UHGV virus genome: UHGV-0182861
Direction: 5' to 3' (one strand)
DNA: 38,350 bases
Source: a virus
The notes beneath the pieces were generated by a model. The model was not told where the DNA came from. It worked only from the letters and a program-made list of their open reading frames with translations, and searched no databases. Made by a program: the position numbers and the translations under genes. Below, piece by piece: positions 1 through 36,661 of the stretch (the first letter of the stretch is position 1; the number at the start of each line of letters is the position of its first letter).

Positions 1-235
1 GCTCTGAGCCCTCTCTCCCTAGCTTCCGCTCTTAAGACGGGGATCAAAGAGAGGTCAAACCCAAAAGAGATCGCGTGGATGCCCTGCCTGGGGTTGAAGC
101 GTTAAATCTAATCAGGCTAGTTTGTTAGTGGCGTGTCTGTCCGCAGCTGGCAAGCGAATGTAAAGACTGACTAAGCATGTAGTGCCGAGGATGTAGGAAT
201 TTCGGACGCGGGTTCAACTCCCGCCAGCTCCACCA
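1..235 (+). ncRNA. ssrA: tmRNA (ssrA), 3' portion; 5' end lies outside the window
   Basis: Sequence matches the recalled enterobacterial tmRNA 3' half, including the tag-reading-frame region and the tRNA-like end GGACGCGGGTTCAACTCCCGCCAGCTCCACCA ending near 235; followed by a hairpin terminator. Confidence 0.9.
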
Positions 236-237
236 AA
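191..237. repeat. att core direct repeat, copy 1 (ssrA 3' end; attL of prophage)
   Basis: 47-nt string atgtaggaatttcggacgcgggttcaactcccgccagctccaccaaa is repeated identically at 35222..35268. Confidence 0.85.
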
Positions 238-244
238 TAAATCA

Positions 245-278
245 AGGGGCTACGTGAAAGCGTAGCCCCTTTTTCTTT
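245..278 (+). terminator. Rho-independent terminator downstream of ssrA
   Basis: Hairpin aggggctacg / cgtagcccct with a 6-nt loop, followed by a ttttcttt run. Confidence 0.6.
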
Positions 279-281
279 GGT

Positions 282-303
282 AGTGGCGGCAAAATGGCGG
301 CAG
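282..303. promoter_or_regulatory. Candidate integrase arm-type site (tandem TGGCGGCA half-sites), left arm
   Basis: agTGGCGGCAaaaTGGCGGCAg lies about 45 bp inside the left att copy; a near-identical motif lies about 95 bp inside the right att copy (35106..35127). Confidence 0.3.
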
Positions 304-343
304 GCATTCAGTCAAGCCCAGTTGCTACTACATGCGATCGCAA

Positions 344-1117
344 TTACAACTTAAAGAGTTTTGCTTGCCCTGGATTAACAGCTTCGACGTAGTTTTTGAC
401 CCCTATTCTGTGCGGCTCATAATTGCTTGAATAGAAATCAATCAGGAAGTCACTCATTTTCTGAGATGTGACTTTCATAACTCCCTTACTCAAAGTTAAA
501 TTAAACACGCTAATCTTTGACGATGGTGCCTGAGTTTTACTCATGTTGGCTTGATAACCAGATTTACGCATTGCCACTAGTGCTTCGTCGTAAGCCGCTT
601 GTAATTGGGCCAAATCGTTTGACGAGATGATCACATCATCCATAAACACACTTAGCTTGAGATCATGATGTTTGTTCAATCGGCGTAGTAAGCTACCAAA
701 ATAACTTTTATCTAAGCAGAGGGTTGCAAGTATTGGAGATTGAACAAAACCAAAAGGGAGGACATGCTTATGTGGACTATGGGACAAGTTTCTTACAGTT
801 GAAAATGTTGAGATTTCCCGCGCTTGAGAATAGGTGAAGTAGCTCTTTAGATCACGGGTGATACGACTACGGCTCGTTGACTGAAAAAATTGTTTAATAT
901 CAACAACGGCAAAAAAATCACTTTTTAAGTGTAATCTGGCAGCTTTAAGATGCCCACCAGTTCTTAGATGGTAAAAATAGAGTGGCGGAATCCACTTGTT
1001 TCTGACAGCCTGAAGTATCTTCCCTCCGACTTTACGTGCCTCAACGCTTGGGACATAAACCCAAACCCCGGGCTTAATCTCAAATTTATCTTCCCACCTT
1101 TGAACTTCTATTGTCAT
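344..1117 (-). CDS. Reverse transcriptase, compact retron-like (257 aa)
   Basis: Translation shows RT motifs: FFAVVDIKQFFQS (motif 1/2 with catalytic D), LPFGFVQSPILATLCL (motif B'), SVFMDDVII (Y/FxDD box) and G-Y-Q-A-N-M-S-K-T (motif D/E-like). About 40% GC versus about 53% for phage core. Poor SD; start overlaps upstream ORF by 32 nt. Confidence 0.75.
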   Translation of the reverse strand: MTIEVQRWEDKFEIKPGVWVYVPSVEARKVGGKILQAVRNKWIPPLYFYHLRTGGHLKAARLHLKSDFFAVVDIKQFFQSTSRSRITRDLKSYFTYSQAREISTFSTVRNLSHSPHKHVLPFGFVQSPILATLCLDKSYFGSLLRRLNKHHDLKLSVFMDDVIISSNDLAQLQAAYDEALVAMRKSGYQANMSKTQAPSSKISVFNLTLSKGVMKVTSQKMSDFLIDFYSSNYEPHRIGVKNYVEAVNPGQAKLFKL

Positions 1118-1274
1118 GAGTTAAATTGTTGTAGTTGAAGGCCATGTTAAGAACGGCGTAAACCGCACCAACTAAGCCAACAAACGCGGTTGCGCATTTG
1201 AGCATAGCGGTGATCAGTTCAACACGCGCCTTAACTAAGCCAAGTTCGTTTGTATCCATAACTTGTTCCTCCAT
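1086..1274 (-). CDS. Small hydrophobic protein (62 aa), overlaps RT start
   Basis: ORF with SD (tcAGGTatct-ATG) and a single hydrophobic helix ATAFVGLVGAVYAVL. Could be spurious if the region is ncRNA. Confidence 0.4.
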   Translation of the reverse strand: MEEQVMDTNELGLVKARVELITAMLKCATAFVGLVGAVYAVLNMAFNYNNLTHDNRSSKVGR

Positions 1275-1500
1275 AGATACCTGACGTCTCTTAGCGCAAG
1301 CGCATGGCCCTAACTAAATAAAAAATAACAACCAGTTAGCCCAGAAAGCTTAACAAGTCGGCGTCCGATTACATGGCAATCAGGTAATCGGTCCGCAGTC
1401 GCAAAGCGACAAACTACATATCTACGGAGTGGGGATAAATCCCCGCTAACGTCAGGCATTGTTAATTTAACCTCAACTTATAGAAAAGTATAGTTTTAAA
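1275..1500 (-). ncRNA. Candidate structured leader / retron-like ncRNA upstream of the small ORF-RT pair
   Basis: About 225-nt non-coding stretch with an 8-bp inverted repeat (cctgacgt near 1280 and acgtcagg near 1449) flanking several hairpins (gtcgcAAAgcgac, ggggaTAAAtcccc, ccgattac..gtaatcgg). No experimental or covariance support. Confidence 0.2.
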
Positions 1501-1520
1501 TCATGTAGTTATGTCGCCAT

Positions 1521-8808: not shown

Positions 8809-9375
8809 TCAGGGGGATTCATTGCTCTTATTTGCCGGAAATTTTCTATAAATGGTAGAAACGCCTACATCAAAAATCAGTGCAATACGCTGTCTTGATT
8901 CTCCGGCCTCGAGTAAACGCCCAATCTGTGCCCACTGTTCGGTGGTCAACTTAGGACGGCGTCCACCTACTCTGCCTTTGGCACGAGCTGCAGCCAGCCC
9001 TGCCATGGTACGTTCAACTATCAGTTCGCGTTCCATTTCAGCCAGGACCCCTATGACATGAAAAAAGAAACGGCCCATTGGGGTGCTGGTATCAATACTG
9101 TCAGTCAGGCTTCGGAAATTCACGCCACGCTGACGCAACTCTTCTATCAGTGTAACAAGATGCCGCATACTGCGCCCCAACCTGTCCAGCTTCCAGACAA
9201 CCAGAGTGTCTCCTGCCGATAGTGTCCTGAGCAGTTTTTTAAGCCCCGGTCTGTCGGACTTAGTGCCACTGATTTTATCCTCAAAAATCCGCTCACATCC
9301 CGCGCAGTTCAGTGCATTACGTTGCAAATCGGTGTTCTGGTCATTTGTTGACACGCGTACATAGCCAATAAGCAT
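8809..9375 (-). CDS. Serine DNA invertase (Gin/Hin/Cin/Pin family)
   Basis: MLIGYVRVSTNDQNTDLQ...GDTLVVWKLDRLGRS...C-terminal HTH; start trimmed to MLIGY with SD AGGGGA upstream. Confidence 0.9.
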   Translation of the reverse strand: MLIGYVRVSTNDQNTDLQRNALNCAGCERIFEDKISGTKSDRPGLKKLLRTLSAGDTLVVWKLDRLGRSMRHLVTLIEELRQRGVNFRSLTDSIDTSTPMGRFFFHVIGVLAEMERELIVERTMAGLAAARAKGRVGGRRPKLTTEQWAQIGRLLEAGESRQRIALIFDVGVSTIYRKFPANKSNESP

Positions 9376-9430
9376 GATCAATCCCCTGAATAAAAACCGT
9401 GGATGATGCCAGTTAGCCATTATCTCTGCA

Positions 9431-9456
9431 TTTTCATAAACGTTGGTTTAGGAGAA
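9431..9456. repeat. Invertase crossover site, left (inverted copy)
   Basis: Reverse complement ttctcctaaaccaacgtttatgaaaa matches 21 of 26 positions of the site at 11307..11332; both resemble gix/hix dyad half-sites around a central AA. Confidence 0.7.
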
Positions 9457-9801
9457 GCGGCGAAAAGGGATGTGGGCACAGGAGATAATCAGATACCGGA
9501 TATGGGAGCATTCGCTTCTGGTTCGGGATGGTTCAGGCTACCAGGTGGATATATTGTTCAGTTTGGCACTTTTTCAGGAAACACGACCCGCTTTATCAGT
9601 GGACACTTCCCTATACCATTCCCTAATCAGCCGATGGTTTCAGTCAGTGTTATGTCTGATGCCGTTCAGTCAGACCCGTCGAATCCTGCCCCGCAGGTTT
9701 TGTCTGTAAATTTTGAACATATCAGTAATTCAGCGTGGCGTGTGGCAACCAGTGATATCTCACAGCAATACAGATTCAGTTATATTTCGATAGGACGGTA
9801 G
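9457..9801 (+). CDS. Alternative tail-fiber C-terminal segment (H'), promoterless, expressed only after inversion
   Basis: In frame through the crossover site; both H and H' encode G-L-G-E at the site, as expected for Mu S/S'-type switching. Confidence 0.65.
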   Translation, partial: AAKRDVGTGDNQIPDMGAFASGSGWFRLPGGYIVQFGTFSGNTTRFISGHFPIPFPNQPMVSVSVMSDAVQSDPSNPAPQVLSVNFEHISNSAWRVATSDISQQYRFSYISIGR

Positions 9802-9803
9802 AA

Positions 9804-10244
9804 ATGCAGAAATATATTTTCAGTGCCGATAAAAATGCGTTTTTCCCTGTGGAGCTTAAAATCGCTTATCAGGAATCCGGCGAATGGCCCGATGATGGAA
9901 TCGAAATTGACGACACTGTTGCCGCCGAATTTATGAAGGAAGCACCAGAAGGAAAATACAGATGTGTCATCGACGGAATGCCTGCATGGATTGATATTCC
10001 ACCGCCAACTCATGAGGAACAAATTGCCGCAGCCGAACTGGAAAAGCAGCAATTGATTAATCAGGTCAACGAATACATAAACAGTAAGCAATGGCCTGGT
10101 AAAGCAGCGATTGGTCGCCTGAAAGGTGAGGAACTGGCGCAATATAATTTGTGGCTGGATTATCTGGACGCACTGGAACTGGTTGATTCCTCCAGTGCTC
10201 CAGATATTGAATGGCCTACGCCTCCGGCAGTTCAGGCCAGATGA
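9804..10244 (+). CDS. Alternative tail-fiber assembly chaperone (G')
   Basis: 146-aa ORF immediately after H'; C-terminal region (LWLDYLDALELVDSSSAPDIEWPTPP) parallels gpG C-terminus (LNAVLDYIDAVTATDTSTAPDVIWPELP). Confidence 0.7.
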   Translation: MQKYIFSADKNAFFPVELKIAYQESGEWPDDGIEIDDTVAAEFMKEAPEGKYRCVIDGMPAWIDIPPPTHEEQIAAAELEKQQLINQVNEYINSKQWPGKAAIGRLKGEELAQYNLWLDYLDALELVDSSSAPDIEWPTPPAVQAR

Positions 10245-10818
10245 CATCCGGTGCGGTGCTGGTATCTGTTGCCGTCACCGCGTCAATGTAATCCAGCACG
10301 GCGTTAAGTCGGGTTGTTTCTGCCTGCGTCAGCTTCCGCCCGGCCCGTAATTTCAGTTGAATCAGACTGATGGAAGCCATTGCTGCATCAATCAGTGACT
10401 GGCGCTGTGCTTCTGCCGCTTCTACTGCGGCGCTATGCTGTGCCTCAGTATCCGTCACCCATTTCTCACCATCCCATTTATCATATGGCGTTAACGGGGC
10501 GATAGTGGTTGTATTTTCAGGGTAATCACCCGGAGCTGTGATTTCTTTCGATTCTCCTGTTTCGGTGCTATAGATGATTTCACCGCGATGGTCTGGTACA
10601 TATTCCCATGAGTTAAAATCTGCAGAACGGCAGATTGCATAACCAGCTTTATGTGTAACTGGTGCATCTAAACAAGAACATGCCGGGATACCGACGCCAA
10701 CGGCAAGATATTCTGTTGATGATGAAATGTATTCCCGTGTCGTGTTGTCATAGTTATAGACGGTAATATCACCCGCTACTGTGGCAATAAATTCACTGTT
10801 TAATTTTGCCTGTGTCAT
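10216..10818 (-). CDS. G: Tail fiber assembly protein gpG
   Basis: 200-aa ORF directly downstream of H with 1-nt overlap. Confidence 0.85.
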   Translation of the reverse strand: MTQAKLNSEFIATVAGDITVYNYDNTTREYISSSTEYLAVGVGIPACSCLDAPVTHKAGYAICRSADFNSWEYVPDHRGEIIYSTETGESKEITAPGDYPENTTTIAPLTPYDKWDGEKWVTDTEAQHSAAVEAAEAQRQSLIDAAMASISLIQLKLRAGRKLTQAETTRLNAVLDYIDAVTATDTSTAPDVIWPELPEA

Positions 10819-23299: not shown

Positions 23300-24336
23300 G
23301 CAAACGTAAAAACAAGAATAACCGCGCAGCAGTAGATCACAACGCAAATTCAGGCGGTGCTGCGGCAGAGGCGTTCAGCTTTGGCGACCCGGTGCCGGTG
23401 TTAGACCGACGCGAATTGCTGGACTACGTGGAATGCGTGCAGATGGATCGCTGGTATGAACCGCCGGTGAGCTTTGACGGACTGGCGCGGACCTATCGCG
23501 CCGCCGTGCATCACAGCTCACCGATTGCCGTTAAGCGTGACATTCTCAGCAGTACCTATATCCCGCACCGCCTGCTCAGCCAGCAGGCTTTTGCCCGTTT
23601 CGTCCAGGATTATCTGGTGTTCGGTAACGCCTATCTGGAAAAGCGCACCAACCGGCTCGGCAGCGTTCTCTCGCTGGAGCCAGCACTGGCGAAGTACACA
23701 CGGCGCGGCGTGGATCTCGACACCTACTGGTTTGTGCAGTATGGCATGACCACGCAGCCCTATGAATTTACGCAGGGCAACATCTTTCATCTGCTGGAAC
23801 CGGATATTAATCAGGAGATTTACGGGCTGCCCGGCTATCTCTCCGCCATCCCGTCAACCCTGCTCAACGAGTCAGCAACGCTGTTTCGCCGGAAGTATTA
23901 CATCAACGGCAGCCACGCGGGTTTCATCATGTACATGACCGACGCAGCACAGAATCAGGAGGACGTGAACAATATCCGCCAGGCAATGAAAAGCGCCAAA
24001 GGGCCGGGCAACTTCCGCAACCTGTTTATGTATTCGCCCAACGGTAAAAAGGACGGCATCCAGATAATCCCGTTGTCGGAAGTTGCGGCAAAGGATGAAT
24101 TTCTGAACATCAAGAACGTGAGCCGTGATGACATGATGGCTGCTCACCGCGTGCCGCCGCAGATGATGGGCATCATTCCCAACAATACCGGCGGCTTTGG
24201 TGATGTGGAAAAGGCCAGCCGCGTCTTTGTCCGCAACGAGCTGATGCCGCTGCAGAAGCGACTGCAGGAGCTTAACGACTGGCTGGGCGAAGAAGTGATC
24301 CGCTTTGAGCCCTACACCTTAGATATTGAAAACTAA
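23296..24336 (+). CDS. Q: Portal protein gpQ
   Basis: 346-aa product aligns with recalled P2 gpQ (FSFGDPVPVLDRRELLDYVEC...ATLFRRKYY...VFVRNEL). Confidence 0.95.
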   Translation: MSKRKNKNNRAAVDHNANSGGAAAEAFSFGDPVPVLDRRELLDYVECVQMDRWYEPPVSFDGLARTYRAAVHHSSPIAVKRDILSSTYIPHRLLSQQAFARFVQDYLVFGNAYLEKRTNRLGSVLSLEPALAKYTRRGVDLDTYWFVQYGMTTQPYEFTQGNIFHLLEPDINQEIYGLPGYLSAIPSTLLNESATLFRRKYYINGSHAGFIMYMTDAAQNQEDVNNIRQAMKSAKGPGNFRNLFMYSPNGKKDGIQIIPLSEVAAKDEFLNIKNVSRDDMMAAHRVPPQMMGIIPNNTGGFGDVEKASRVFVRNELMPLQKRLQELNDWLGEEVIRFEPYTLDIEN

Positions 24337-24344
24337 TACAGAGA

Positions 24345-24360
24345 GCGCTTTGCAAAGCGC
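24345..24360. terminator. Bidirectional hairpin terminator between convergent Q and the TIR gene
   Basis: Perfect 16-nt palindrome gcgctttgcaaagcgc with T-rich flanks on both strands. Confidence 0.6.
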
Positions 24361-24370
24361 CCTCTAATTT

Positions 24371-25804
24371 TCATTCAATACTATCTAGACGACTAACATT
24401 CATTTTATTGAGAAAGTCTCTATTAAAACCGAAATGATACCAGTTACTAGTATTTCGCTGGGCCTCACCCTCTGTCAGCTTTTGAGCCAAAAGTTTACTG
24501 TCATCGATTCCGGTAATAACTGCAATACTCTTGAATCCTCTATGCTGTATTGCTCTTGTAAATAGAGGATATTTCTCATAGTGCCCGGAATACAACAACA
24601 TTTGCGGGTACCAAAAAATACCGGGATTAATGAAGGATATCATAAGAGCAACAAGATCAGCTTGTTTCAAATCATCGAAAGACACATCATCTCTAGTTGC
24701 ACTTTGCTTTACTAACTCAGCAACAGGGGAATACAGTCGATAGTTTTCAGGGGACAATTTACTTTGAAGGTAATCAGAGCTTAAATATAACTCACTGTAA
24801 TTAGCAAACTCCATTCCCGGACTGGTTATATGATCGGGTAGCAAATAAGATGTATGCAGTAATGTATGTACATGCTGGAAAGCTTCAATTTTTATTAAAG
24901 CCGCCAAAATATATAAAAACGTTTCATACGCAAAAATCTGATGGGGCAAAAACCATATTTCATTATATGAATTTACATTTTTCGGACGATTTCTAATCGC
25001 TAACATTACTTCCATAAACTGTAATAGTGCTTTGGAAAAGTCTTCGCCCTGCGTATCACCCTCAAGTAAAACCCAGTCTGTAATGGCATCCCTAACGGCA
25101 ATAAGCTCTTTATGAATTTGCAAAACTTCCGCTGCAAAATCTTCAGTAGTTGGGTTTGTTACGACTTGTAGTGAGATACAATAATTTCGGCACACCTCTA
25201 AAAATTGCCTTCTGCAATCCTTTAATGTCTGCTTTTGATTTAAGACAGCTGATTTTAAAGTTTGAAATTTTGCATGAATTTCATACGTCGGTTTTGACGT
25301 GTCTTGCTCTAAATAAACCGGAGGCTTACCTAATGGTGGCTTAGTAAATTCTGGTTTTCCATAAAGCAACCTGATTAAACGTTCCCAATTATCATTTTCT
25401 TTTTCTGGTGTTGAAAAATCAATATAGATTCTAGACTTCAGAAAGATTGGAGTATACGGCTCTCCATTATCTTTGTACTCAAATATTAATGGTATAAATT
25501 TGGACTGCGACACGGATGAATATATTTCCTGGGAAATTATCATCGACTCAACACCGACACCATCTTTTCTTAAATCGGCTTTTTCTGAGTATTTTTTATC
25601 ACAAATGACTAAAACATGCGTAACCGTTTCATCTTGAACCATTCTTTCCATGTAATAATTTTTATCATCCCCTTCTTTCAAGTCATAAATATCTATGACA
25701 GTTTCAACTCCATCTGCCGCCAATCGTTCAGCCATATCTTTGATATGTTGCTGATGAGTTTTACTTGACCAACTATAGGATATAAAAACTTTTGGCTGGA
25801 TCAT
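24371..25804 (-). CDS. TIR-domain protein with about 330-aa uncharacterised C-terminal domain (477 aa); candidate anti-phage effector
   Basis: N-terminus KVFISYSWSS...VETVIDIYDL...VLVICDKKY...GVGVESMIISQE follows the bacterial TIR pattern (FISYS strand, conserved Glu in GV-x-V-E). Strong SD AGGGAGG and own promoter. About 33% GC versus about 53% for phage core. Confidence 0.7.
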   Translation of the reverse strand: MIQPKVFISYSWSSKTHQQHIKDMAERLAADGVETVIDIYDLKEGDDKNYYMERMVQDETVTHVLVICDKKYSEKADLRKDGVGVESMIISQEIYSSVSQSKFIPLIFEYKDNGEPYTPIFLKSRIYIDFSTPEKENDNWERLIRLLYGKPEFTKPPLGKPPVYLEQDTSKPTYEIHAKFQTLKSAVLNQKQTLKDCRRQFLEVCRNYCISLQVVTNPTTEDFAAEVLQIHKELIAVRDAITDWVLLEGDTQGEDFSKALLQFMEVMLAIRNRPKNVNSYNEIWFLPHQIFAYETFLYILAALIKIEAFQHVHTLLHTSYLLPDHITSPGMEFANYSELYLSSDYLQSKLSPENYRLYSPVAELVKQSATRDDVSFDDLKQADLVALMISFINPGIFWYPQMLLYSGHYEKYPLFTRAIQHRGFKSIAVITGIDDSKLLAQKLTEGEAQRNTSNWYHFGFNRDFLNKMNVSRLDSIE

Positions 25805-25883
25805 CCTCTGCCTCCCTTAGGTTTGATGTTTGATTTATATGACAAATATTTTAACAAGTCTAGGGGTTTACCTGTTGCGCGCG

Positions 25884-26692: not shown

Positions 26693-29107
26693 TTAATACA
26701 GGTTTCGCCACTTATCATCTTCCTGCAAACGCTGGTTCCGACAGAAGATACGCAGGCCTGCTCCTGACGGAATACTGCCACCGCGAAGGAGCAGATCGAC
26801 CTCTTTCTCGCTGCCATCAAATCCTCTTGACTTCAGTTCATAGACGAGCTGCTGTCGCTGATGGTCTGTAATTCGCTGTTTGTAGTCTTTACGCCGTTTC
26901 GGTTTCACCAGGCGTAACCTTGCAGCCAGTTCCCGGCGCTCTTTTTTGCTCATACTGTGCAGGTAATCGTGCAACTCCTTGTCATCCATGCGGGTAATGT
27001 CCGTCCTGGTATCCCCATCAGCTGATTTGTCTTTCCCTTGTTGGTTCAAATTTTCAGCAAGGGGACAGTTATTGCCACGAGTCCAAGGGGCGCAAGCGCC
27101 CTGGTCGGCTGCCGCCTCCTGAACGTCAACGGCCTTACGAACCATTTTCCACTTCACGGCATGAGTGCAGATCTTGCCCTCTGCAATAGGTGACCAGATG
27201 CCATAAATACGAATGCCGTGATCGCCATAGGCGGTCGGCTCTTCGTTGATTTCATAAGCAGTTCTGATGAGGTGATATTTACGGGGAACCAGTACGCCGC
27301 CCTGCTTCATGATGTAGGTGGCAAAACAACCAGCATCAGCAGCAGCCAGGATTGCATCAAGGCGCGGGTTATCCAGTACCGGCGCACCTGCTTTTTTGTC
27401 ACCCTGTTGCCTTGCCGCCTGACCAGCCAGCAATCGCAGTTCACGGTAAGCCTGACGCCCCGGAATGCCAAAGAAGCGGAATTGCTGAACACGATGCAGA
27501 GACGCCCAGGCATTCACGTATTCAGCGTTATCACGCAGGGATTTACCCGTTTCCTTGCTGATCTCGCCAGCCAGACCACGCCCGTCAATGTTCTTACTGA
27601 TATATTTCGCGATGTAGCTTGTCGGCGTTCCTTTGCGCGGGTTAATCAACTCAGACTTAAAGCGTGGTCCCGTGTTATTCCCCAGCTCCTCGCGGTCTTC
27701 ACGAATGGCAAACTTACGCAACAAAGCAGTAATGGCGCGGCGATCTTTTTTGCGCATAAAACACAACAGGTGCCAGTGAACTGTACCGTCATGATGCGGC
27801 TCAGCCACCCGCACGCCATACCAGCGCAATCCGGCTTTGTGCATCGCCTTACGAAATGCAGCAAACATGCCAACCAGATAATCACTGCTTTGTCTTACCG
27901 TCGCATTTGTCCAGGTCGGGTTGGGCCTGCCGTTATTTAGCGTGGAATGGAAACGTGACGGACAGGTGATGGTGTAGAAAACGGCGCAGTCACCGCGCAT
28001 TTCCGCGATAAGCTCCAGGCCTTTAACACAGGCCATCATCTCATTGCGGCGATGCGCAGGGTTGCTGCTGCTGGCGTTTACCACATCCTCCATGTCCAGC
28101 GTGTCGCCGTCTTCGTTCACCAGTTCATGAGAACGGAAAAACTCCAGCGACTTACGGCGCTGCTCACGTTTATGCATCACGGCTTCATAGCTGACATAGG
28201 GAGATGCTTTTTTGCTGACCAGACAGACAGCACGCAACTGCTCTTCCCGCCATTCGCAACGCATCTTCCATAATTTCCGATACCACCAGTCGGCGCACAG
28301 CATACGCGCCAGCGAACCCGGAATGAGTTCATAGGGCACAGGTTTGCGGCGGTTTCTTTTCCGGCGGAGTTGCTCAAACGCAGGCGGTATGACATCCAGT
28401 CGCAGGGTTTCTGCTGCCACCTTTTCCCATGTCTTGCGGATTTCTTCCGGCTTAACATCATCGGAGGCGTACAAATCACCACAAGCGGCATCAAGACACA
28501 TGCTCATATGCGCAGCGACAAGGGTGGACAGGCGTTTCACCTGATCCTGACTCATTTCAGGCAGGCTCAGCAGACCGTCCAGCCCTTCATGGCTTGCCAT
28601 AAAACGAAAAGATGCAGATAGCTGGCTGTCGCGTACATGCTCCAGTCGTTCCAGGCATGGCTTAATCGTCTCACGCAAATAGCGGGAATAAGCCTTTGGC
28701 CTGCCCAGGTTGCTGAAGTATTTAATACGTTGCATCAGCGGCTTGCTGATATGGGAAGGCTGGGCGTTGACATCCGCCAGAATGACCATGTCTGGATTAA
28801 AACGCTGCTGCTCATGCGCCAGCTTTGCCCGGCTAATTAGCTTATCCTGCTCCATTTCGCGCTGGACAGGATCACGGGATTCATTAAAGAAATAACGCTC
28901 CCAGACCTGATCACTCAGTGCCTCGCGGCGCAGTTGTTCCTGCTCGTTATCGGCAGCGTACAGAGTGATCAGGTTTGAAAGCGCAGAAACCGGCGCAACT
29001 TCCGCCGGGTCCAGATAAGGGTTAATGGCCTTTTTCGGGCTGTTCCATGAGAATGCTGCGGCAGCCTCGTTAAAGCCGCAGCAGTTGTTCATATCGGCAT
29101 GGCTCAT
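26693..29107 (-). CDS. A: Replication initiation protein gpA (rolling-circle endonuclease)
   Basis: 804-aa product in the P2/186 A position with an HUH-like motif (VHWHLL) and downstream catalytic tyrosines (YIAKYISK). Confidence 0.9.
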
Positions 29108-29961
29108 GCACGTACTCCGTACACGGCAGAACTGTCCACGCCACGCGAATAATCAAATCCCACCCAGCAGCGCGGCCCGGAAACAGCAATGATTTCTGTT
29201 GCTGATTTACCCTCTCCAGCTGCCACACCGATGTTGCGTTTTGCCTTGATGTAGTGGTGAGTAAAATTGCGATACAGCGAACGGATCAGGGATGTGTCAC
29301 TGTTAGAAACAATGACCGGATGTCCTTCTGATGACCGATGTTCAAGAACGGATGCCAGGTGATACTGGTCATCTTCAGTGAAGCCGTCAGTGTGATAACC
29401 GGAAAACGTGCCGTCATACGGCGGATCGCAATACACCACATCCCCCGCCTTCAACATCGCCAGCGTTTCATCAAAGCTGGCGCAGATAAACGTTGCCCGC
29501 TGGGCTTTTTCTGCAAATGCGCGAATTTCTTTTTCAGGGAAATACGGATTTTTATAATTACCGTAGGGAATGTTGAAATGCCCGCTCTTGTTATAGCGAC
29601 ATAAACCACGGTAACCGTGACGATTGAGATACAGGAAATATACCGCTTTCATGAAATCAGTAATTTCAGTGGAGTAATTAAACTCCTGCCTTATGTTGTA
29701 ATAAGCCACCTCCCTGTTTGCGATCTCAAATAAAACTCTGGCGCGAGATATAAACGATTCACAATCAGCGGCAACCTTTTTATAGAGGTTGATTAAATCA
29801 GGATTAATATCCGCAACCAGATAGCTGGGGTAATCCGTCTCCATCATCACAGCACAGGAACCCGCGAAAGGTTCAACCAGTCGCGGGCCAGCAGGAAGGT
29901 GTTTTTTCAGTTCGGACATAATGGCGGTTTTATTTCCCGCCCATTTCAGGATGGTGCTCAT
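29104..29961 (-). CDS. dam: DNA adenine methyltransferase (Dam family)
   Basis: Trimmed to [11 protein letters not shown]; contains the DPPY catalytic motif and FAGSCAV SAM-binding motif; start overlaps upstream stop (ATGA). Confidence 0.85.
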
Positions 29962-30185
29962 ACAGCACCTCCGTTGTAATGTTTGCCTTTCAGCTCTGCG
30001 ATTTCCTGACAGGTAATGCAAAGCTGCACACCTGGAATGGCGCGGCGGCGTGCTGGCGGAATTGGCGCTTCACACTCAATGCAAAGCACGCGGGACACGC
30101 CCGGCGTTTTGGCACGGGCAGCACGAATATGGCGCTGGCGTTCTTCTTCAACGCGCTGCTGTACAAGATCCATTGCATCAGCCAT
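29958..30185 (-). CDS. C4 zinc-finger protein (TraR/DksA family)
   Basis: 75 aa with CIECEAPIPPARRRAIPGVQLCITCQ four-Cys motif. Confidence 0.75.
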   Translation of the reverse strand: MADAMDLVQQRVEEERQRHIRAARAKTPGVSRVLCIECEAPIPPARRRAIPGVQLCITCQEIAELKGKHYNGGAV

Positions 30186-30424
30186 TAGTGGATCTCCTGC
30201 GCTTCGTTCTGGATTGCTTCAGCAGTTACACGCAGTAGTTCTGCTGCTTCGACGTGGTTTAGCTGGCGGGATGTGATATGACACGCCAGGCTATCAAGGC
30301 GAGCTGCCATTGCTTCAGCCCTTGCCCGGCGTTCTTCCAGACGAGCCTCTGTCAGTAAAATATTAAGCCCTGCATCATCCGGTCCGGTTTTAGTCGTGAG
30401 GGTTTCAATATTACGCATAATCAA
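30185..30424 (-). CDS. Hypothetical early protein (79 aa)
   Basis: ORF in the early operon between CII and A; no recognised motif. Confidence 0.5.
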   Translation of the reverse strand: MIMRNIETLTTKTGPDDAGLNILLTEARLEERRARAEAMAARLDSLACHITSRQLNHVEAAELLRVTAEAIQNEAQEIH

Positions 30425-30485
30425 TTCTCCTGAATTTAGATAAAGGGATACCCGGCGGGTTTACGCCATTAATTTCATTAGTTGG

Positions 30486-30827
30486 TTAATTCGGCATGGT
30501 TAGCCGTCTGGGAAATAAGCTCACCACTGCACGAAAATGATTCATTGCTTTAATCAACTCCCGCTTTTCGTCAGTGGTCAGCTCATTAATGCTGATGCTA
30601 TGACGTTCAGCTGGAATTTTTGCCATAAAGAATATAGCAGCCAGTGCCCGTTTATTTTGTTCGTTATTGATATCCCGTGGATCACGCATATCTTTAATAA
30701 ACCGCTCAAGCTCTGACTCAATATTCAGGCCAAATACTTTCGCCCTTAACTCCGCAATATGGTTAAGTCCATTCAGGCGTTCACCGGGGCTTAATGGAAC
30801 AGTCGCCGCAGCGCCTTCAATAGCCAT
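30486..30827 (-). CDS. Hypothetical early protein (113 aa)
   Basis: ORF in the early operon; no recognised motif. Confidence 0.5.
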   Translation of the reverse strand: MAIEGAAATVPLSPGERLNGLNHIAELRAKVFGLNIESELERFIKDMRDPRDINNEQNKRALAAIFFMAKIPAERHSISINELTTDEKRELIKAMNHFRAVVSLFPRRLTMPN

Positions 30828-31021
30828 TTGTTCCCCCGTTTTTTCGTAGATAGTTCTGCCAGCAATTCATCTTGTGAACGGCACGGATGCCAGCGTTTAC
30901 CATCCTCCCCCATGATCCAGCCGTGACCGTAGTGCATTGCCGGGCTTTGTTTTACCAGCAGCGATGCAAATGATGGTTCTTTCGTCAGCATAAGCACCTC
31001 ACAGCAAACCGAATGACGCAC
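30791..31021 (-). CDS. Hypothetical early protein (76 aa)
   Basis: ORF overlapping the CII 3' end; start uncertain. Confidence 0.35.
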   Translation of the reverse strand: MRHSVCCEVLMLTKEPSFASLLVKQSPAMHYGHGWIMGEDGKRWHPCRSQDELLAELSTKKRGNKWLLKALRRLFH

Positions 31022-31508
31022 CGAGGCCAGTTACAGTATCAACTGCACTTGCCATCGCAGGATTAGCCTGTAAACGGGCCTGCAATGAAACAGCCGCCAG
31101 CGCCATCAGTCGTGTTACAGAGTTAATGCTGCTGATAGCATCACGACGACCTGCACTGGTTTTTACATCGCCAGATACCGCACCTGCAGCAACACGCCCG
31201 ATCTCTGCAGTTGCACTCATGACGTAATGCGGCAGTTTCTCTTTTGCCACCTCATTAATCGGAACACATGGCAGACAATGAATCTGTGCCAGAAAACCGT
31301 CTACCAACGTTGAATCTTCAGTCAGATCGGTAAGCAACCAGATTTCTGGTGCGGTGAGCTGATGCGGTTGATCTGGATTGAGTTTGTTTCGCAGTGTCTG
31401 AACATTCATTCCTGCACGTTCTGCCAGCTTTGCCATATTGTGACGTAGTGCAAAAGCTCTACAGGCTTCATCAAAATGCGGATGTTTGGAAATCTTGTAA
31501 TCAAACAT
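30999..31508 (-). CDS. cII: CII-like lysogeny-establishment activator (186 type)
   Basis: 169 aa; MFDYKISKHPHFDEACRAFALRHNMAKLAERAGMNVQTLRNKLNP... closely matches recalled 186 CII. Confidence 0.85.
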   Translation of the reverse strand: MFDYKISKHPHFDEACRAFALRHNMAKLAERAGMNVQTLRNKLNPDQPHQLTAPEIWLLTDLTEDSTLVDGFLAQIHCLPCVPINEVAKEKLPHYVMSATAEIGRVAAGAVSGDVKTSAGRRDAISSINSVTRLMALAAVSLQARLQANPAMASAVDTVTGLGASFGLL

Positions 31509-31540
31509 GCTGCCCCCTTAGAAAGTTCTCATAATTGAAC

Positions 31541-31789
31541 TTAGTCACCAACGATGACATTAAAGTTGAAATTGGATTGGCCCATGTTTTTCCTGACTTG
31601 TTCCTTTTTGTACTCAAGGTAACGTATACATACTCTGTCTTTCGGTTTTTCTTTTCTTTCCAAGAAGTTAGCGAGTTTACCATTATGAATCATTTGATAT
31701 ACCGAACCGCGAGAGCGGCCTTCCCATTCCGCGAACTCAGCTGGTGTCGCCATCACTTTTGGTACACGAATTGAAATGTCGTTGCTCAT
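31541..31789 (-). CDS. apl: Apl/Cox-like excisionase and transcriptional regulator
   Basis: 82-aa HTH protein, first gene of the lytic operon, divergent from cI. Confidence 0.7.
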   Translation of the reverse strand: MSNDISIRVPKVMATPAEFAEWEGRSRGSVYQMIHNGKLANFLERKEKPKDRVCIRYLEYKKEQVRKNMGQSNFNFNVIVGD

Positions 31790-31842
31790 AGTGCAGTATC
31801 TCTCGATTAAGGTTTGGTTTACGTCGTTTTATCTTGTTTTAT

Positions 31843-31917
31843 TTGATTCAATATTTGATACACCAAGATACTACGATCCAATATTTGATACGTCAACAGG
31901 ATTGAAAAATGATACAA
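31843..31917. promoter_or_regulatory. Immunity switch region with repeated TTTGATAC-type operator motifs
   Basis: tttgattca, caatatttgataca, caatatttgatacg and aatgatacaag within the apl-cI intergenic region at roughly 25-30 bp spacing. Confidence 0.5.
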
Positions 31918-32541
31918 GTAAAAGCTGGCGAGAATACAGGGGGAAGAGAGGCTATCCATAGGCTAATGGCAGCCTATGATTTCAAGTCCAGACAGCAACT
32001 TTGCGATCACTTGGGCGCATCAAAAAGCACTATGGCAAACAGATACTTAAGAGATAGTTTTCCTGCAGAATGGGTGATTCAGTGCGCTTTGGAAACAGGA
32101 GTTTCTTTACTGTGGCTAACTACCGGACAGGGCGATCCAGGTTCAAACATTGACCCTAAAAAAAATATCAATTCCGTGAACTCTAGCAAAGTTAAACCTC
32201 TTTCGGAGCTTGTATCTCCTGAAATTGACAAGGCAACTCTCAACGGAGGTTTGCTGATCGATGCTGGAAAAGCAATCATTGATAGCAGCATACTCCCCTC
32301 AGACTCAAGCAACCTGCTGCTGGTGACTACTTCTGGTGATTCTTATTTAATAGATCGCAACCAAACACCACCAGTAAATGGTACGTGGTTAGTGGACATC
32401 GACGGGATAAAAAGCATTGTAAAATTGACACGACTCCCGGGAAACAGATTAGTAGTGCATCAGGATGATTCATCGTTTGAGTGCGAACTGGATGACATTG
32501 AGGTAATAGGCCGCGCACTGAAAATCATTAAGAGCCTTTGA
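31909..32541 (+). CDS. cI: CI immunity repressor (186 type)
   Basis: 210 aa; CALETGVSLLWLTTGQG and WLVDIDGIKSIVKLTRLPGNRL...FECELDDIEVIG align with recalled 186 CI. Confidence 0.85.
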   Translation: MIQVKAGENTGGREAIHRLMAAYDFKSRQQLCDHLGASKSTMANRYLRDSFPAEWVIQCALETGVSLLWLTTGQGDPGSNIDPKKNINSVNSSKVKPLSELVSPEIDKATLNGGLLIDAGKAIIDSSILPSDSSNLLLVTTSGDSYLIDRNQTPPVNGTWLVDIDGIKSIVKLTRLPGNRLVVHQDDSSFECELDDIEVIGRALKIIKSL

Positions 32542-32542
32542 T

Positions 32543-33556
32543 ATGACCATCAGAAAACAGCCGAACGGAAAGTGGTTATGTGAATGCTACCCAAACGGGC
32601 GAGATGGCAAACGCGTACGCAAACAATTTGCGACGAAAGGCGAAGCCATTGCGTTTGAGAATTTCACCATGGACGAGGTAAACAAGAAACCTTGGCTGGG
32701 AGAAAAGGAAGATCGGCGACACCTATCAGAATTAATTGAGCTGTGGTATTCCCTGTATGGTCAAACACTCGCAGACCCCAAGCGACTCATGGCGAAACTT
32801 GGAATTATCTGTAATGGTCTGGGCGATCCCATCGCTTCAGAGCTGACTGCCGGTGACTTTACGAAATACCGCGAAGCACGGCTAAAAGGTGAAGTGCGAA
32901 ATGAAGATGGCACGCTGATGTCGCCCGTTAAGCCCCGCACGGTAAACCTTGAACAGCGCAATCTATCATCTGTGTTCGGTACATTAAAAAAACTAGGACA
33001 CTGGTCAGCACCAAACCCGCTGGCAGGACTTCCGACCTTCAAAATTGCCGAAGGTGAGCTGGCTTTTCTTTCCACGGACGAAATCAAGCGCCTGTTGGCG
33101 GCATGTGCTGAATCTCAAAGCCCTAGCTTACTAATGATTGCAAAAATATGCCTGGCTACTGGCGCACGGTGGAGTGAAGCCGAAAATCTGCAGGGCCATC
33201 AAATATCGAAATACCGAATTACTTATACAAAAACAAAAGGCAAGAAAAACCGTACTGTGCCGATATCTCAGGATCTGTATGATGAACTCCCCAAAAACAG
33301 AGGAAAGTTATTCACGCCATGCAGAAAAGCCTTTGAGCGGGCAGTAAAGCGGGCCGGTATTGACCTACCGGAGGGCCAATGCACCCACGTGCTTCGCCAT
33401 ACATTCGCCAGTCACTTTATGATGAACGGCGGAAACATACTGGTACTGCGTGATATTTTGGGTCATGCCGATATAAAAATGACCATGATTTACGCCCACT
33501 TTTCGCCCGATCACCTTGAAGACGCGGTGACTAAAAATCCTCTTTATAATTTGTAG
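32543..33556 (+). CDS. int: Tyrosine integrase (P2/186 Int family)
   Basis: 337 aa with C-terminal catalytic motifs (R...HVLRHTFASHFMMNGG...LGHADIKMTMIYAHF) directly downstream of cI. Confidence 0.9.
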   Translation: MTIRKQPNGKWLCECYPNGRDGKRVRKQFATKGEAIAFENFTMDEVNKKPWLGEKEDRRHLSELIELWYSLYGQTLADPKRLMAKLGIICNGLGDPIASELTAGDFTKYREARLKGEVRNEDGTLMSPVKPRTVNLEQRNLSSVFGTLKKLGHWSAPNPLAGLPTFKIAEGELAFLSTDEIKRLLAACAESQSPSLLMIAKICLATGARWSEAENLQGHQISKYRITYTKTKGKKNRTVPISQDLYDELPKNRGKLFTPCRKAFERAVKRAGIDLPEGQCTHVLRHTFASHFMMNGGNILVLRDILGHADIKMTMIYAHFSPDHLEDAVTKNPLYNL

Positions 33557-33568
33557 TGGAGACCTATT

Positions 33569-35089
33569 GTGATTCAAAAATTAGATATTCAATCTGATGC
33601 GGTTGCAAAGTTAAGAATGGATGCTATTCGTTCAGAAATCCAAGGTTATTCCCCTGATTTATTTATCGAATTCTGTATGCAATATAACTTACAAAAATTT
33701 GAAGATAATATCCACATGTTACGACACATGCCTTGGATTGTTAATTTATGTCTAAAGTGGTCTGCGTCAGTAACTGGCAAGAATAAAAAATTCAAAATCC
33801 TCGATAAAAATCAAGCAATAAAACTCTTCCAAAAAACTTATGAAACCTTGAACATTATTCCTATCGGTCTTGAGAGGAAGAATGGCATGCATTTCTTCAT
33901 TAGAAATAATCTATACCAACAAGGAATCTACCAGAAAATTGACGCTCTAAACACAATTAGCAGACAAGTCTTTCTATTTTCAGAACTTGAAAAAAACCAT
34001 AAAATAAAGACAAGTTTTTTTACTATCACGAATGTATCTATCGAAGACTTTCTTAAGCTATCTTACATATTAATAACTCACATAACAGAAGAGCATCCCG
34101 TGAGAAAAATGAATGTAGATACATTTACTATATTATTTGACATCATTCCTAGAAATACCATTGAGAAATTTCTTGATGCAATATCAATAAATTACAATGA
34201 ACTATCTACATTTTGCAAATCAAAAACCTATGATAAACCTTTGCTTGAATACTACTCATCATCACCTTTTCTTGAAAAACCATTAATAAAAAAAGGTTCA
34301 GAGTATTTTCAGATACACACACAACTGACTTCAACAAGCATACAGACGTTCATATATGATCTTTTAAGAAGAACTGATGCCGAGAAGTTCATGGATAGCT
34401 TTGGAAATGTATTTGAAAATGCACTGGAATTAATACTAAAAGAAAGCGAAATTGATTTTCATAACGAAAAACACCTTAAAGAACGACTACCTAAAGATAA
34501 TAAAGTAGTTGATTATTTCATTCCACATACTGAGGCAAATATTTTCATTGATGCTAAAGGCGTTGAGATACACCAAAAAGGCATGGTAACATTACGCCCT
34601 GAGGATATTGCAGGAAAAATAAAGAAATCGGTATTAAAAGCAATCGAACAATCTCACGAAGTTAATCGAGAAATATACTCTAATGAGCGAATAATAGCTC
34701 CATTCAGGGCTAACTCATATATCATTTGCATTACATATAAAAACCTTTTCTTAGGCAATGGTAGTATCCTAGCTAATACTTATGCTAAAGATGAGATGAA
34801 TAAGATATATGACAAGTTTAAACATAACTATCATATCCCTACAGAGAATATTTTTTGTCTATCATTTGAAGAGTTTGAATATCTCATTGCATCATGCAAA
34901 AGGTTTAAAATTCCGCCTCATGAAGTCTTGCAATCTGCAGTTGAAAAGAACAAAAAACCATCAAGTGCTGCTTTCCTATTTTCCCACCATATAGAAGACT
35001 ATTTTGATAGAGTAGTCAATTCAGTCATAGTCAATGAGGCAGGCATTAAAATGGTAGATTCTATTATCAATAAATTAAAGCCTGAATAA
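33569..35089 (+). CDS. Orphan 506-aa protein, AT-rich; possible PD-(D/E)xK nuclease-like motif
   Basis: GTG start 12 nt after int stop with SD GGAG; about 30% GC; segment VVDYFIPHTEANIFIDAKGVE fits a D...(D/E)xK pattern by eye; no other recognised motif. Confidence 0.55.
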   Translation: MIQKLDIQSDAVAKLRMDAIRSEIQGYSPDLFIEFCMQYNLQKFEDNIHMLRHMPWIVNLCLKWSASVTGKNKKFKILDKNQAIKLFQKTYETLNIIPIGLERKNGMHFFIRNNLYQQGIYQKIDALNTISRQVFLFSELEKNHKIKTSFFTITNVSIEDFLKLSYILITHITEEHPVRKMNVDTFTILFDIIPRNTIEKFLDAISINYNELSTFCKSKTYDKPLLEYYSSSPFLEKPLIKKGSEYFQIHTQLTSTSIQTFIYDLLRRTDAEKFMDSFGNVFENALELILKESEIDFHNEKHLKERLPKDNKVVDYFIPHTEANIFIDAKGVEIHQKGMVTLRPEDIAGKIKKSVLKAIEQSHEVNREIYSNERIIAPFRANSYIICITYKNLFLGNGSILANTYAKDEMNKIYDKFKHNYHIPTENIFCLSFEEFEYLIASCKRFKIPPHEVLQSAVEKNKKPSSAAFLFSHHIEDYFDRVVNSVIVNEAGIKMVDSIINKLKPE

Positions 35090-35105
35090 GTCTCCCAAGC
35101 AAAAC

Positions 35106-35127
35106 CAGTGGCGGCATTTTGGCGGCA
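35106..35127. promoter_or_regulatory. Candidate integrase arm-type site (tandem TGGCGGCA half-sites), right arm
   Basis: agTGGCGGCAttttGGCGGCAg, about 95 bp inside the right att copy; counterpart at 282..303. Confidence 0.3.
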
Positions 35128-35221
35128 GAGCATTAAAAATGCGTAAAACAGACAAACACAAAATAATACTAACACACTGATTTTAAACATAAGTTCATGT
35201 TTTTGTTATAGTAAAAATGGT

Positions 35222-35268
35222 ATGTAGGAATTTCGGACGCGGGTTCAACTCCCGCCAGCTCCACCAAA
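35222..35268. repeat. att core direct repeat, copy 2 (displaced ssrA 3' end; attR of prophage, junction with next island)
   Basis: Identical 47-nt copy of 191..237. Confidence 0.85.
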
Positions 35269-35300
35269 CATTGATGTACTGAAGTTCAGTGAAGTCTTCT

Positions 35301-35336
35301 AAGCCCGCATGGCACAAGCTATGCGGGCTTTTTTAC
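35301..35336 (+). terminator. Rho-independent terminator after the displaced ssrA 3' end
   Basis: agcccgcat / atgcgggct stem with 10-nt loop followed by tttttt. Confidence 0.6.
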
Positions 35337-35431
35337 GTCTATTGTCGTCTAGTGAGAATTGCTGAGAATCACGAGTTATGGCACCCTGAATGGGACCCAA
35401 GACAAAGGGTCCAAAAATCGAGGGTCCCAAA

Positions 35432-36661
35432 ATGGCAAAGATCGCGAAGAAACTCACCGACACAGAAATCAAAAACACCAAGCCAGCAGACAAAGAAGTC
35501 AACTTGTTTGACGGGGATGGCTTGATTCTACGAATCTCTCCCCTCTCAACAGGTGGGAAAAAAAATTGGTATTTCAGGTATTCAGTGCCAGTGAGCAAGA
35601 AAAGAACCAAGATGAGCCTTGGGACCTACCCTCACCTTACCCTGGCAAGAGCAAGAGCCTTGCGTGATGAATACCTCTCCTTGCTTGCGAATGGCACGGA
35701 CCCTCAAGTCCATAACAACGATAAAGCTAATGCATTAAAGAATGCCACAGAACACATATTACAAGCCGTGGCGAGAAAATGGTTGGATGAGAAGGTAAAG
35801 ACCTCTGGCATCTCACAAGACCATGCAGAAGACATCTGGCGGAGCCTTGAACGAAATATTTTCCCCGGTCTGGGTAATGTGCCAATCAATGAGATCCGTC
35901 CCAAGCTCTTAAAGCAGCATCTTGATCCAATTGAACAACGAGGAGTACTGGAAACTTTGCGGCGGCTAATTTCCAGGTTGAATGAAATCTTCCGTTGGGC
36001 GGCTACAGAAGAGCTGATTGAATTTAACCCCGCAGATAATCTAGGCCAACGTTTCAGTAGGCCTAAAAAACAGAATATGCCTGCCTTACCCCCCTCTGAA
36101 CTCCCTCGTTTTCTGGCAGCACTGAACAATGCTTCTGTCCGTTTAGAAACAAGACTATTGATTGAATGGCAACTTCTCACATGGGTTCGCCCTGGTGAAG
36201 CAGTCCGCGCAAGATGGTCTGATATAGATATGGATAACAGCATGTGGAACATCCCGGCTGAATTTATGAAGATGAAAAAACCTCATAAGGTCCCATTAAG
36301 CAAAGAATCTCTTCGGATACTCAAGTCTATGGAATCAATCAGTGGGCACCGAGAGTGGGTATTTCCCAGCATAAAGGCTCCCTTAAATCATATGCATGAA
36401 CAAACAGCCAATGCAGCAATTATCCGTATGGGCTTTGGAGGTGAACTTGTTGCCCACGGAATGCGATCTATTGCAAGAACGGCAGCGGAAGAGTCAGGTA
36501 AGTTCAGGACAGATGCCCTTGAAGCGGCCCTTGCCCACTCAAAAAAAGACGAAATTATCGCTGCATATAATCGTGCGGAATATATTACCGAACGAGTAGC
36601 TCTCATGCAGTGGTGGGGAGATTATGTCCTGGCACAACAGCTTAAAATTTTTGCTGCTTAA
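35432..36661 (+). CDS. Tyrosine integrase, P4/CP4-57 IntA type
   Basis: Trimmed to MAKIAKKLTDTEIKNTKPADKEVNLFDGDGLILRI (typical P4-family N-terminus) with SD GAGGG; C-terminal catalytic region HGMRSIARTAA...LAHS...AYNRAEY. Confidence 0.85.
   Translation: MAKIAKKLTDTEIKNTKPADKEVNLFDGDGLILRISPLSTGGKKNWYFRYSVPVSKKRTKMSLGTYPHLTLARARALRDEYLSLLANGTDPQVHNNDKANALKNATEHILQAVARKWLDEKVKTSGISQDHAEDIWRSLERNIFPGLGNVPINEIRPKLLKQHLDPIEQRGVLETLRRLISRLNEIFRWAATEELIEFNPADNLGQRFSRPKKQNMPALPPSELPRFLAALNNASVRLETRLLIEWQLLTWVRPGEAVRARWSDIDMDNSMWNIPAEFMKMKKPHKVPLSKESLRILKSMESISGHREWVFPSIKAPLNHMHEQTANAAIIRMGFGGELVAHGMRSIARTAAEESGKFRTDALEAALAHSKKDEIIAAYNRAEYITERVALMQWWGDYVLAQQLKIFAA

Follow-up and report, generated by a model that had tools for sequence, protein, structure and literature searches.

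The gene for transfer-messenger RNA (tmRNA), ssrA, is the most enriched integration target, and the Islander database catalogues 125 tandem arrays of at least two islands, in which each member is required to have its own integrase and its own fragment of tRNA- or tmRNA-gene DNA (tDNA). Table 1 of PMC10107115, citing Williams 2003, places two elements at ssrA in Salmonella LT2, namely, Fels-2, with a P2 integrase, and Stm27X, with a P4 integrase. For SopEPhi and Fels-2, integration into ssrA with its 3' end left unchanged is documented. Here, we analyzed the virus genome UHGV-0182861, a single stretch of 38,350 nucleotides (nt) that we refer to as the window. Very probably, two integrative elements that are unrelated to each other stand in tandem in the window, at the 3' end of a Klebsiella tmRNA gene: a P2-like prophage comes first, ahead of a probably older defense island (here, island 2).

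Comparison with these systems indicates both how familiar this arrangement is and where it departs from its precedents. As in LT2, a prophage with a P2-type integrase and an island with a P4-type integrase both use the ssrA 3' end in one genome, and the P2-type element leaves ssrA unchanged (CGCCAGCTCCACCA). The window differs from LT2 in its host, Klebsiella, in the type I restriction-modification (R-M) cargo of its island, and in its prophage cargo of a retron-like reverse transcriptase (RT), bSEFIR, and GapS1. SopEPhi and RE-2010 (Felsduovirus) and the Klebsiella phage records of the Kp48xx-2 series have the same 47-bp core and arm repeats as the prophage, are collinear with it, and likewise carry cargo in the interval from int to att. 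In SopEPhi and RE-2010, however, ogr directly adjoins the P' arm without an RT module, and GapS1 is replaced by another gene, of ~400 amino acids (aa), while Kp4845-2 differs from the window prophage in its portal and in the segment containing the Q-A cargo hotspot. For island 2, the nearest described counterpart is CP4-57, which carries intA and occupies ssrA of E. coli K-12. Both have a P4-family integrase immediately downstream of the gene and in the same orientation, and the distal fragment in E. coli relatives shows the deltaT signature of CP4-57. Yet the island 2 integrase is only 47% identical to the intA product of a CP4-57-like island, and the cargo of island 2 is defensive (type I R-M and Kiwa) rather than composed of CP4-57 genes. 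CP4-57-like and island 2 elements also coexist as separate neighbors in E. coli 873.10.

The stacking itself is thus a new instance of a known and well-documented arrangement, correct but ordinary: a textbook tDNA tandem array, now also exemplified in Klebsiella, where its boundaries are clean and empty sites serve as controls. The cargo is of more interest than the stacking, and the two leads that we draw from it are a retron-like module that lacks a helix-turn-helix (HTH) gene and the position of GapS1.

Element boundaries at the ssrA 3' end

The features that define the two elements are as follows.

1 to 235, + strand: ssrA (tmRNA gene), cut on its 5' side by the window edge and complete on its 3' side through the terminal CCA (Rfam RF00023; identity to ssrA of K. 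pneumoniae ST15)
191 to 237, + strand: attL core, the last 45 nt of ssrA plus 2 nt (exact 47-bp repeat; the same core ends SopEPhi and RE-2010)
244 to 271, + strand: phage-supplied intrinsic terminator after the regenerated ssrA (12-bp stem and T-run; kept in SopEPhi, RE-2010, and ST15phi14.1)
282 to 302, + strand: P' arm, two predicted Int arm-binding direct repeats, AGTGGCGGCA and AATGGCGGCA (doublet, conservation, and consensus)
32543 to 33556, + strand: prophage integrase of the 186/Fels-2 type (Pfam Int_N and Phage_integrase; similarity to SopEPhi Int)
35107 to 35127, + strand: P arm, two predicted Int arm-binding direct repeats, AGTGGCGGCA and TTTGGCGGCA (doublet, conservation, and consensus)
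35222 to 35268, + strand: attR core, a displaced copy of the ssrA 3' end that doubles as the left junction of island 2 (exact repeat)
35301 to 35330, + strand: island-supplied terminator after the ssrA 3' end (13-bp stem and T-run; kept with the leader in E. coli and Citrobacter)
35432 to 36661, + strand: island 2 integrase of the P4/CP4-57 family, 409 aa (Pfam Arm-DNA-bind_3, Phage_int_M, and Phage_integrase, i.e., PF13356, PF22022, and PF00589)
38024 to 38350, + strand: first part of hsdM (type I R-M), a cargo gene of island 2 that runs off the window (identified from its translation)

A first-pass annotation of the window, made from the sequence alone, had proposed that the ssrA 3' end and an identical copy of it bracket a P2-like prophage, and our analysis confirmed this observation. 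The 47-mer ATGTAGGAATTTCGGACGCGGGTTCAACTCCCGCCAGCTCCACCAAA occurs in two exact copies in the window, both on the plus strand, and 100 dinucleotide-preserving shuffles yielded no match to it even with three mismatches allowed. The tmRNA was recognized by Rfam with 148 bits (E value of 2e-58, model positions 134 to 374 of 374); ARAGORN made no tmRNA call because ssrA is truncated at the window edge. The left copy of the repeat is the true 3' end of the gene with 2 additional nucleotides. The first 237 nt of the window are 100% identical to ssrA of K. pneumoniae ST15, which identifies the host as Klebsiella pneumoniae or one of its closest relatives.

Between the two copies lies an apparently intact 35-kb prophage of the P2 family, of the 186/Fels-2/SopEPhi type. 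The P2-family gene set and order are present (ogr-D...Q, A, CII, Apl, CI, int), and the agreement of its open reading frame (ORF) lengths with those of RE-2010 suggests that the prophage is intact. Its backbone is collinear with RE-2010 and SopEPhi by blastn from ~1600 to 33558 and again from 35101 to 35268, and its integrase shares 93% aa identity with SopEPhi Int over 337 residues. The prophage limits are likewise matched by independent records. The SopEPhi and RE-2010 genome records terminate in the identical 47-bp core, and Klebsiella phage records (Kp4845-2 and others, of 35,561 bp, in the Kp48xx-2 series) correspond exactly to positions 238 to 35221 of the window, with Kp4845-2 being 99.4 to 99.9% identical to the window prophage outside 22577 to 25876. 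Inboard of each core is a 186-type arm doublet with its repeats 11 bp apart, and across the whole 38 kb such doublets are confined to these two places. They are kept in SopEPhi, RE-2010, and ST15-OXA48phi14.1, where homology breaks just inboard of them, and they match the reverse complement of the 186-type Int arm-site consensus tgccGCCActt published in PMC3448106.

The displaced copy of the ssrA end was also said to be followed immediately by a P4/CP4-57-type integrase, and the domain set of the P4 family is indeed found there. The protein matches the N-domains of CP4-like integrases in PDB and shows no sequence relationship with the Int of the prophage. Against the NCBIfam model PRK09692 (CP4-57-type) it scores 426.4 bits, marginally missing the cutoff of 434, and for this reason we label it P4-family and CP4-57-like rather than an IntA ortholog. 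Its most likely start is the ATG at 35432, which gives the 409-aa form, the only one that is recorded and annotated in relatives. A start at 35390 (423 aa) was rejected, as that product has no record.

Sites that lack the prophage were suggested by the first-pass annotation as a comparison, and these show the island directly at ssrA. In two metagenomic contigs, L002 and L003, a sequence 100.0% identical over 3,129 bp to positions 35222 to 38350 of the window directly follows an intact ssrA. The flanks of these contigs are those of Citrobacter (93 to 95% identical to C. meridianamericanus), and their ssrA bodies differ from that of the window at 8 to 9 positions, the last of which is window position 184. 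Since identity starts after this last difference, the left junction of the island maps to ssrA positions 185 to 237, and since the island is 100.0% identical despite the Citrobacter flanks and the diverged ssrA, it has moved recently between genera. An exact-junction scan of metagenome contigs found a single contig, L136, in which an ssrA identical to that of the window runs straight into an island variant of 97% identity. The smpB flank of this contig is 98% identical to K. pneumoniae ST15, so the occupied, prophage-free state exists in Klebsiella. More broadly, among 74 loci that encode relatives of the island integrase (one genome per species), an intact tmRNA ends ~165 nt before the integrase in 48, and the integrase that follows the displaced copy in the window has the same ~165-nt spacing and orientation as at an intact ssrA. 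Taken together, these data support two genuine elements that are independent of one another and are each specific for ssrA.

The content of island 2 is only partly visible in the window. In L002, the integrase region of the island gives way to hsdM, hsdS, hsdR, KwaA/KwaB (Kiwa), and ankyrin genes. A 96% copy of the island lies directly at ssrA in E. coli ET915, the closest complete relative, where it holds type I R-M together with genes for a relaxase and an AlpA-family protein. Between the integrase and hsdM lies a gene-poor spacer of 1.36 kb (36662 to 38023), whose ORFs of 63 and 87 aa have no family match. Two direct copies of a 20-nt sequence occur in the spacer (37132 and 37237), which is 96% conserved in E. 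coli ET915.

We propose the following route to this structure. The prophage tyrosine integrase would have recombined a 47-bp attP core, with two arm repeats on each side, with the identical end of ssrA. At attL, the phage end would regenerate the ssrA 3' end and bring a new terminator, and the original ssrA 3' end would be displaced 35 kb downstream as attR. Island 2, which would target the same part of ssrA, would now start at the displaced copy with its own leader, terminator, and P4/CP4-57-family integrase. On this account, the island would have been in ssrA first, and the prophage would then have entered the regenerated ssrA, pushing the island outward. Two consequences may follow. With the phage supplying the ssrA 3' end, excision of the P4-type island should spare tmRNA, unlike excision of CP4-57 in E. 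coli, and in principle both elements could leave together, in a single composite circle, through the action of a P4-type integrase.

Order of arrival and competing explanations

Stacking recurs in other genomes, with just a displaced ssrA fragment standing before the island-type integrase in several loci. In another Klebsiella species (contig L065), genes for CI, for an Int of the P2 type (95%), and for a homolog of GapS1 (49%) lie upstream of the displaced fragment. In contig L025, an intact ssrA is followed by a 5-kb remnant with a P2-type Int and then by an ssrA fragment, and in Yersinia ruckeri (L040) two P4-type islands are stacked. E. coli E308 has the order CI-Int-GapS1-core and then a related integrase. 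E. coli 873.10 (L010, 1 to 23110) holds a triple array: a Fels-2-type prophage with a 506-aa gene, a CP4-57-like intA island of ~18 kb, a degenerate ssrA fragment ending in ...CGCCAGC-CCACCA (deltaT), and the island 2 integrase with type I R-M. The deltaT change in an ssrA fragment is given as the signature of a CP4-57-type attR in PMC10107115. In E. coli ET915 (L004, 15269 to 15285, minus strand) and E308 (L009, 24212 to 24228, plus strand), near ypjC/ileY, a deltaT fragment, CTGCCAGC-CCACCA, is joined to AATAAATCAAGGGGT, with which a Fels-2-type P' arm begins. We interpret this fusion as a fossil junction of an older ssrA array.

The arrival of the prophage last is the most parsimonious reading and most likely the correct one, although we infer it rather than take it as proven by the structure. 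The earlier proposal that the prophage integrated into an ssrA already occupied by an intA-type island stands as regards two ssrA-specific elements, on the strength of the 93% match of Int, the 48 of 74 loci, and the prophage-free sites; for the order of events, it stands as an interpretation only.

Several points weigh against our overall reading of the window. The window ends before the distal att copy of the island and before the bulk of its cargo, and so does not delimit the island; in Islander terms, the prophage has its own integrase and fragment, and island 2 has its own integrase, with its fragment beyond the window. A search of 50 kb in E. coli ET915 for the distal ssrA fragment of island 2, both ungapped and fuzzy, recovered nothing clean, and a looser search in ET915 and E308 recovered only the degenerate deltaT fragment ~35 kb downstream. 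This 35-kb stretch of ET915 may comprise two or more decayed islands. The structure does not reveal which element inserted first, since the displaced 47-bp copy may be a secondary target in its own right. The island in the window is also nearer to the Citrobacter copies (100%) than to the Klebsiella copy in L136 (97%), which allows for a recent arrival. Finally, for the prophage, a cos site was not located, as the 19-mer of P2 cos had no match within three mismatches in the window.

Some of these same points lend themselves to the opposite order, in which the prophage entered an unoccupied ssrA first and a P4-type island arrived later, using the displaced 47-bp attR fragment as a secondary attB. 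The displaced copy holds the whole T-arm and the acceptor 3' strand, the island left junction falls wholly within or beside the repeat, and the pattern of identity among the island copies is compatible with a very recent arrival. We nonetheless consider this order unlikely. The island family usually adjoins an intact gene, as the 48 species counted above attest; E. coli 873.10 likewise has the island farthest out, beyond the prophage and the CP4-57-like island alike; and a prophage-free occupied site is known in Klebsiella. These three observations are why we favor arrival of the island first. In addition, a newly arriving element should use the complete gene no less readily than a fragment without the upstream context.

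A second possibility is that island 2 is no longer mobile, such that a fixed, domesticated integrase and a defense locus form the normal region downstream of ssrA and the window contains one element beside ordinary chromosome. Cargo varies among copies, with Kiwa in L002 and a relaxase and an AlpA-family gene in ET915, and the corresponding loci of K. pneumoniae ST15 and of E. coli K-12 type hold other content, neither of which fits a fixed locus. The same is true of the 3,129 bp that are 100.0% identical in Klebsiella-type and Citrobacter hosts despite divergence of the adjacent ssrA bodies and flanks, and of the deltaT fragment of the CP4-57 kind that bounds the region in E. coli. Although no clean distal ssrA fragment is found in ET915, the integrase lies beside ssrA in very many species, and the island integrase falls short of the PRK09692 cutoff (426 against 434 bits), we regard a fixed locus as improbable.

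Defense cargo and the retron-like module

The candidate defense genes of the prophage, together with ogr, are as follows.

344 to 1117, - strand: compact RT, 257 aa, retron-like, in the slot between att and ogr (Pfam RVT_1, E value of 2e-21)
1086 to 1259, - strand: small protein, 57 aa, with a hydrophobic helix, overlapping the RT start; candidate retron effector (conserved ORF; GGAGG 8 nt upstream of the ATG at 1259)
1280 to 1456, - strand: retron-like noncoding RNA (ncRNA) between inverted repeats a1 (1456 to 1445) and a2 (1295 to 1280) (conserved in 20 diverged loci)
1521 to 1739, - strand: ogr, late-gene activator, 72 aa (Pfam Ogr_Delta, E value of 1.5e-21)
24371 to 25804, - strand: bSEFIR defense protein, 477 aa, in the Q-A (cos-proximal) hotspot (PADLOC bSEFIR, E value of 1e-102, full length; Pfam SEFIR, E value of 1.5e-14, and TIR_2)
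33569 to 35089, + strand: GapS1 anti-phage family protein, 506 aa, in the slot between int and att (NCBIfam NF047931)

As the first-pass annotation had noted, ogr lies at one end of the prophage and int at the other, with cargo between each and the att core: the RT gene between ogr and the left core, and the 506-aa gene between int and the right core. It had also named a separate repeat pair around ogr..int as the sign that these genes are independent islets; they would then have inserted, each with its own boundaries, beside a smaller ogr..int prophage. Some relatives do lack both genes, and SopEPhi and RE-2010 have no RT and a different gene beside int, but this explanation can be set aside as highly improbable: no direct repeat pair flanking only ogr..int was found beyond chance between the two end zones, the longest direct word that they share being a 12-mer (at 1458 and 33737; 0.34 expected by chance) whose right copy lies inside the 506-aa ORF; the core and the arm repeats are both outboard of the two genes; in propagated phages, too, the int-att slot is occupied by a gene; and the Kp48xx-2 records hold both genes at 99.9% identity.

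We instead view the RT and 506-aa genes as cargo in variable phage slots, because the attP parts lie outboard of them and relatives vary at these positions. In propagated relatives, the int-att slot holds another gene, orfY in SopEPhi and gp01 in RE-2010, neither of which had a Pfam or PADLOC match. The att-ogr slot of the ssrA prophage phage 500465-1 likewise holds a different gene. A third cargo position, the gpA-gpQ hotspot, has been described in PMC9122126; bSEFIR occupies it in the window, AbiU in RE-2010, and PDC-S49 in E. coli E308.

The 506-aa protein matches NF047931 with 430.3 bits, against a cutoff of 320, over the entire profile (1 to 455 of 455), and gapS1 is annotated at the same position in E. 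coli E308. GAPS1 is a PD-(D/E)xK defense protein that is triggered by capsid and induces dormancy. In a paper that does not use the word "prophage" in its main text, ~78% of GAPS1 homologs were reported to be from K. pneumoniae. We observed GapS1 in the int-att slot of ssrA-integrating Fels-2-type prophages of both Klebsiella and E. coli (33569 to 35089 in the window, 8145 to 9626 in L065, and 18470 to 19990 in L009). Its presence in this slot of the prophage lineage may account for the Klebsiella bias of GAPS1 homologs. We also put forward, tentatively and as a possibility that we would not yet favor, a broader proposal: that the att-ogr and int-att slots are unrecognized hotspots for defense cargo beyond Q-A, that a widespread, apparently undescribed HTH-less retron subtype with an msr-msd-like ncRNA sits in the att-ogr slot, and that a prevalent Klebsiella lineage explains the GAPS1 bias.

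The ssrA locus would thus carry a stack of anti-phage cargo, with the retron-like RT, bSEFIR, and GapS1 in the prophage and type I R-M and probably Kiwa in the island. Such cargo at ssrA is mobile between genera, which makes it relevant to phage therapy against Klebsiella.

The RT belongs to a conserved family of proteins of 250 to 260 aa that are annotated everywhere merely as "reverse transcriptase." Its best PADLOC model is RT_VI, at only 63 bits and near the scores of other RT models, and it scores far below the cutoffs of the NCBIfam retron models. The small ORF that overlaps the RT start is conserved, with the motifs GLVK.R.E ... NMAFNY, in 50 viral contigs found in a scan of IMG/VR, many of them at prophage ends. 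Upstream of this ORF, the inverted repeats CCTGACGTTAGC (a1) and GCTAAGAGACGTCAGG (a2) bound the putative ncRNA. Across the 20 diverged loci, 92% of cells in the a1/a2 stem are paired, compared with 27 to 38% when the partner is slid. The main helix of the ncRNA has compensatory double changes in 4 of its 8 pairs, which derive from few lineages, and none of 500 shuffles reached the observed covariation score. Between positions 238 and 1900, no known retron RNA family was recognized by Rfam, even with a permissive threshold.

In its layout, this module most resembles the type VI retrons, such as Retron-Vpa2 and Retron-Sen3, in which an ncRNA bounded by inverted repeats is followed by a small-protein (SP) ORF and then by the RT, and in which the 3' repeat arm lies just upstream of the ribosome-binding site for the small protein. 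Type VI retrons are ordered ncRNA-SP-HTH-RT, and their HTH antitoxin/repressor is required for viability. In contrast to this order, SP and RT overlap in the window module, and no HTH ORF was found between them either in the window, where there is no further ORF between ogr and att, or in the diverged relatives. The window RT also differs in being shorter (~255 aa) and in its low RT_VI score. The module thus looks like an HTH-less relative of type VI retrons rather than a member of that type. If this reading is true, the toxin would have to be kept in check by another mechanism or by a factor acting in trans. The minus strand has no predicted intrinsic terminator in the interval between ogr and the ncRNA (1457 to 1520), so the RT module may be cotranscribed with ogr. 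In relatives without the RT module, an ogr terminator is present at that position.

Remaining features of the prophage

The rest of the prophage consists of the following.

1829 to 24336, both strands: P2-family late region with D, U, T, E, FII, FI, a tail fiber and invertase segment, baseplate, lysis, and head genes, terminase P, and portal Q (75 to 88% nucleotide identity to RE-2010/SopEPhi, collinear; Pfam GPD, terminase, portal, and tail fiber)
1829 to 2929, - strand: GpD (Pfam)
22571 to 23299, + strand: extra stand-alone terminase-ATPase paralog between P and Q (Pfam Terminase_6N, E value of 8e-15)
26693 to 32541, both strands: early and regulatory region with replication gene A, Dam, CII, Apl, and CI (Pfam Phage_GPA, E value of 2e-127; 93% nucleotide identity to RE-2010)
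26693 to 29107, - strand: GpA (Pfam)
31909 to 32541, + strand: CI repressor of the 186 type (Pfam Phage_CI_repr and CI_C)

Within the late region, a serine invertase gene (8809 to 9420, minus strand) adjoins opposed genes for tail fiber C termini and assembly, with 9403 to 9801 and 9804 to 10244 on the plus strand facing 10216 to 10818 on the minus strand. The segment from 8809 to 10818 looks like a host-range switch of the Gin/Cin type; clean inverted repeats that could serve as crossover sites of the presumed invertible tail fiber segment were sought, and none were found.

The diverged terminase-ATPase paralog is 33% identical to residues 142 to 368 of GpP and is set between P and Q with start and stop codons overlapping. 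It is absent from four relatives (L005 to L008) and present in Escherichia phage 500465-1. Finally, the segment from 22577 to 25876 is mosaic relative to Kp4845-2, whose portal gene shares just 82% identity and whose hotspot cargo is different. The same segment is 96% identical to ST15-OXA48phi14.1, and this match indicates a recombinational swap of the portal together with bSEFIR.

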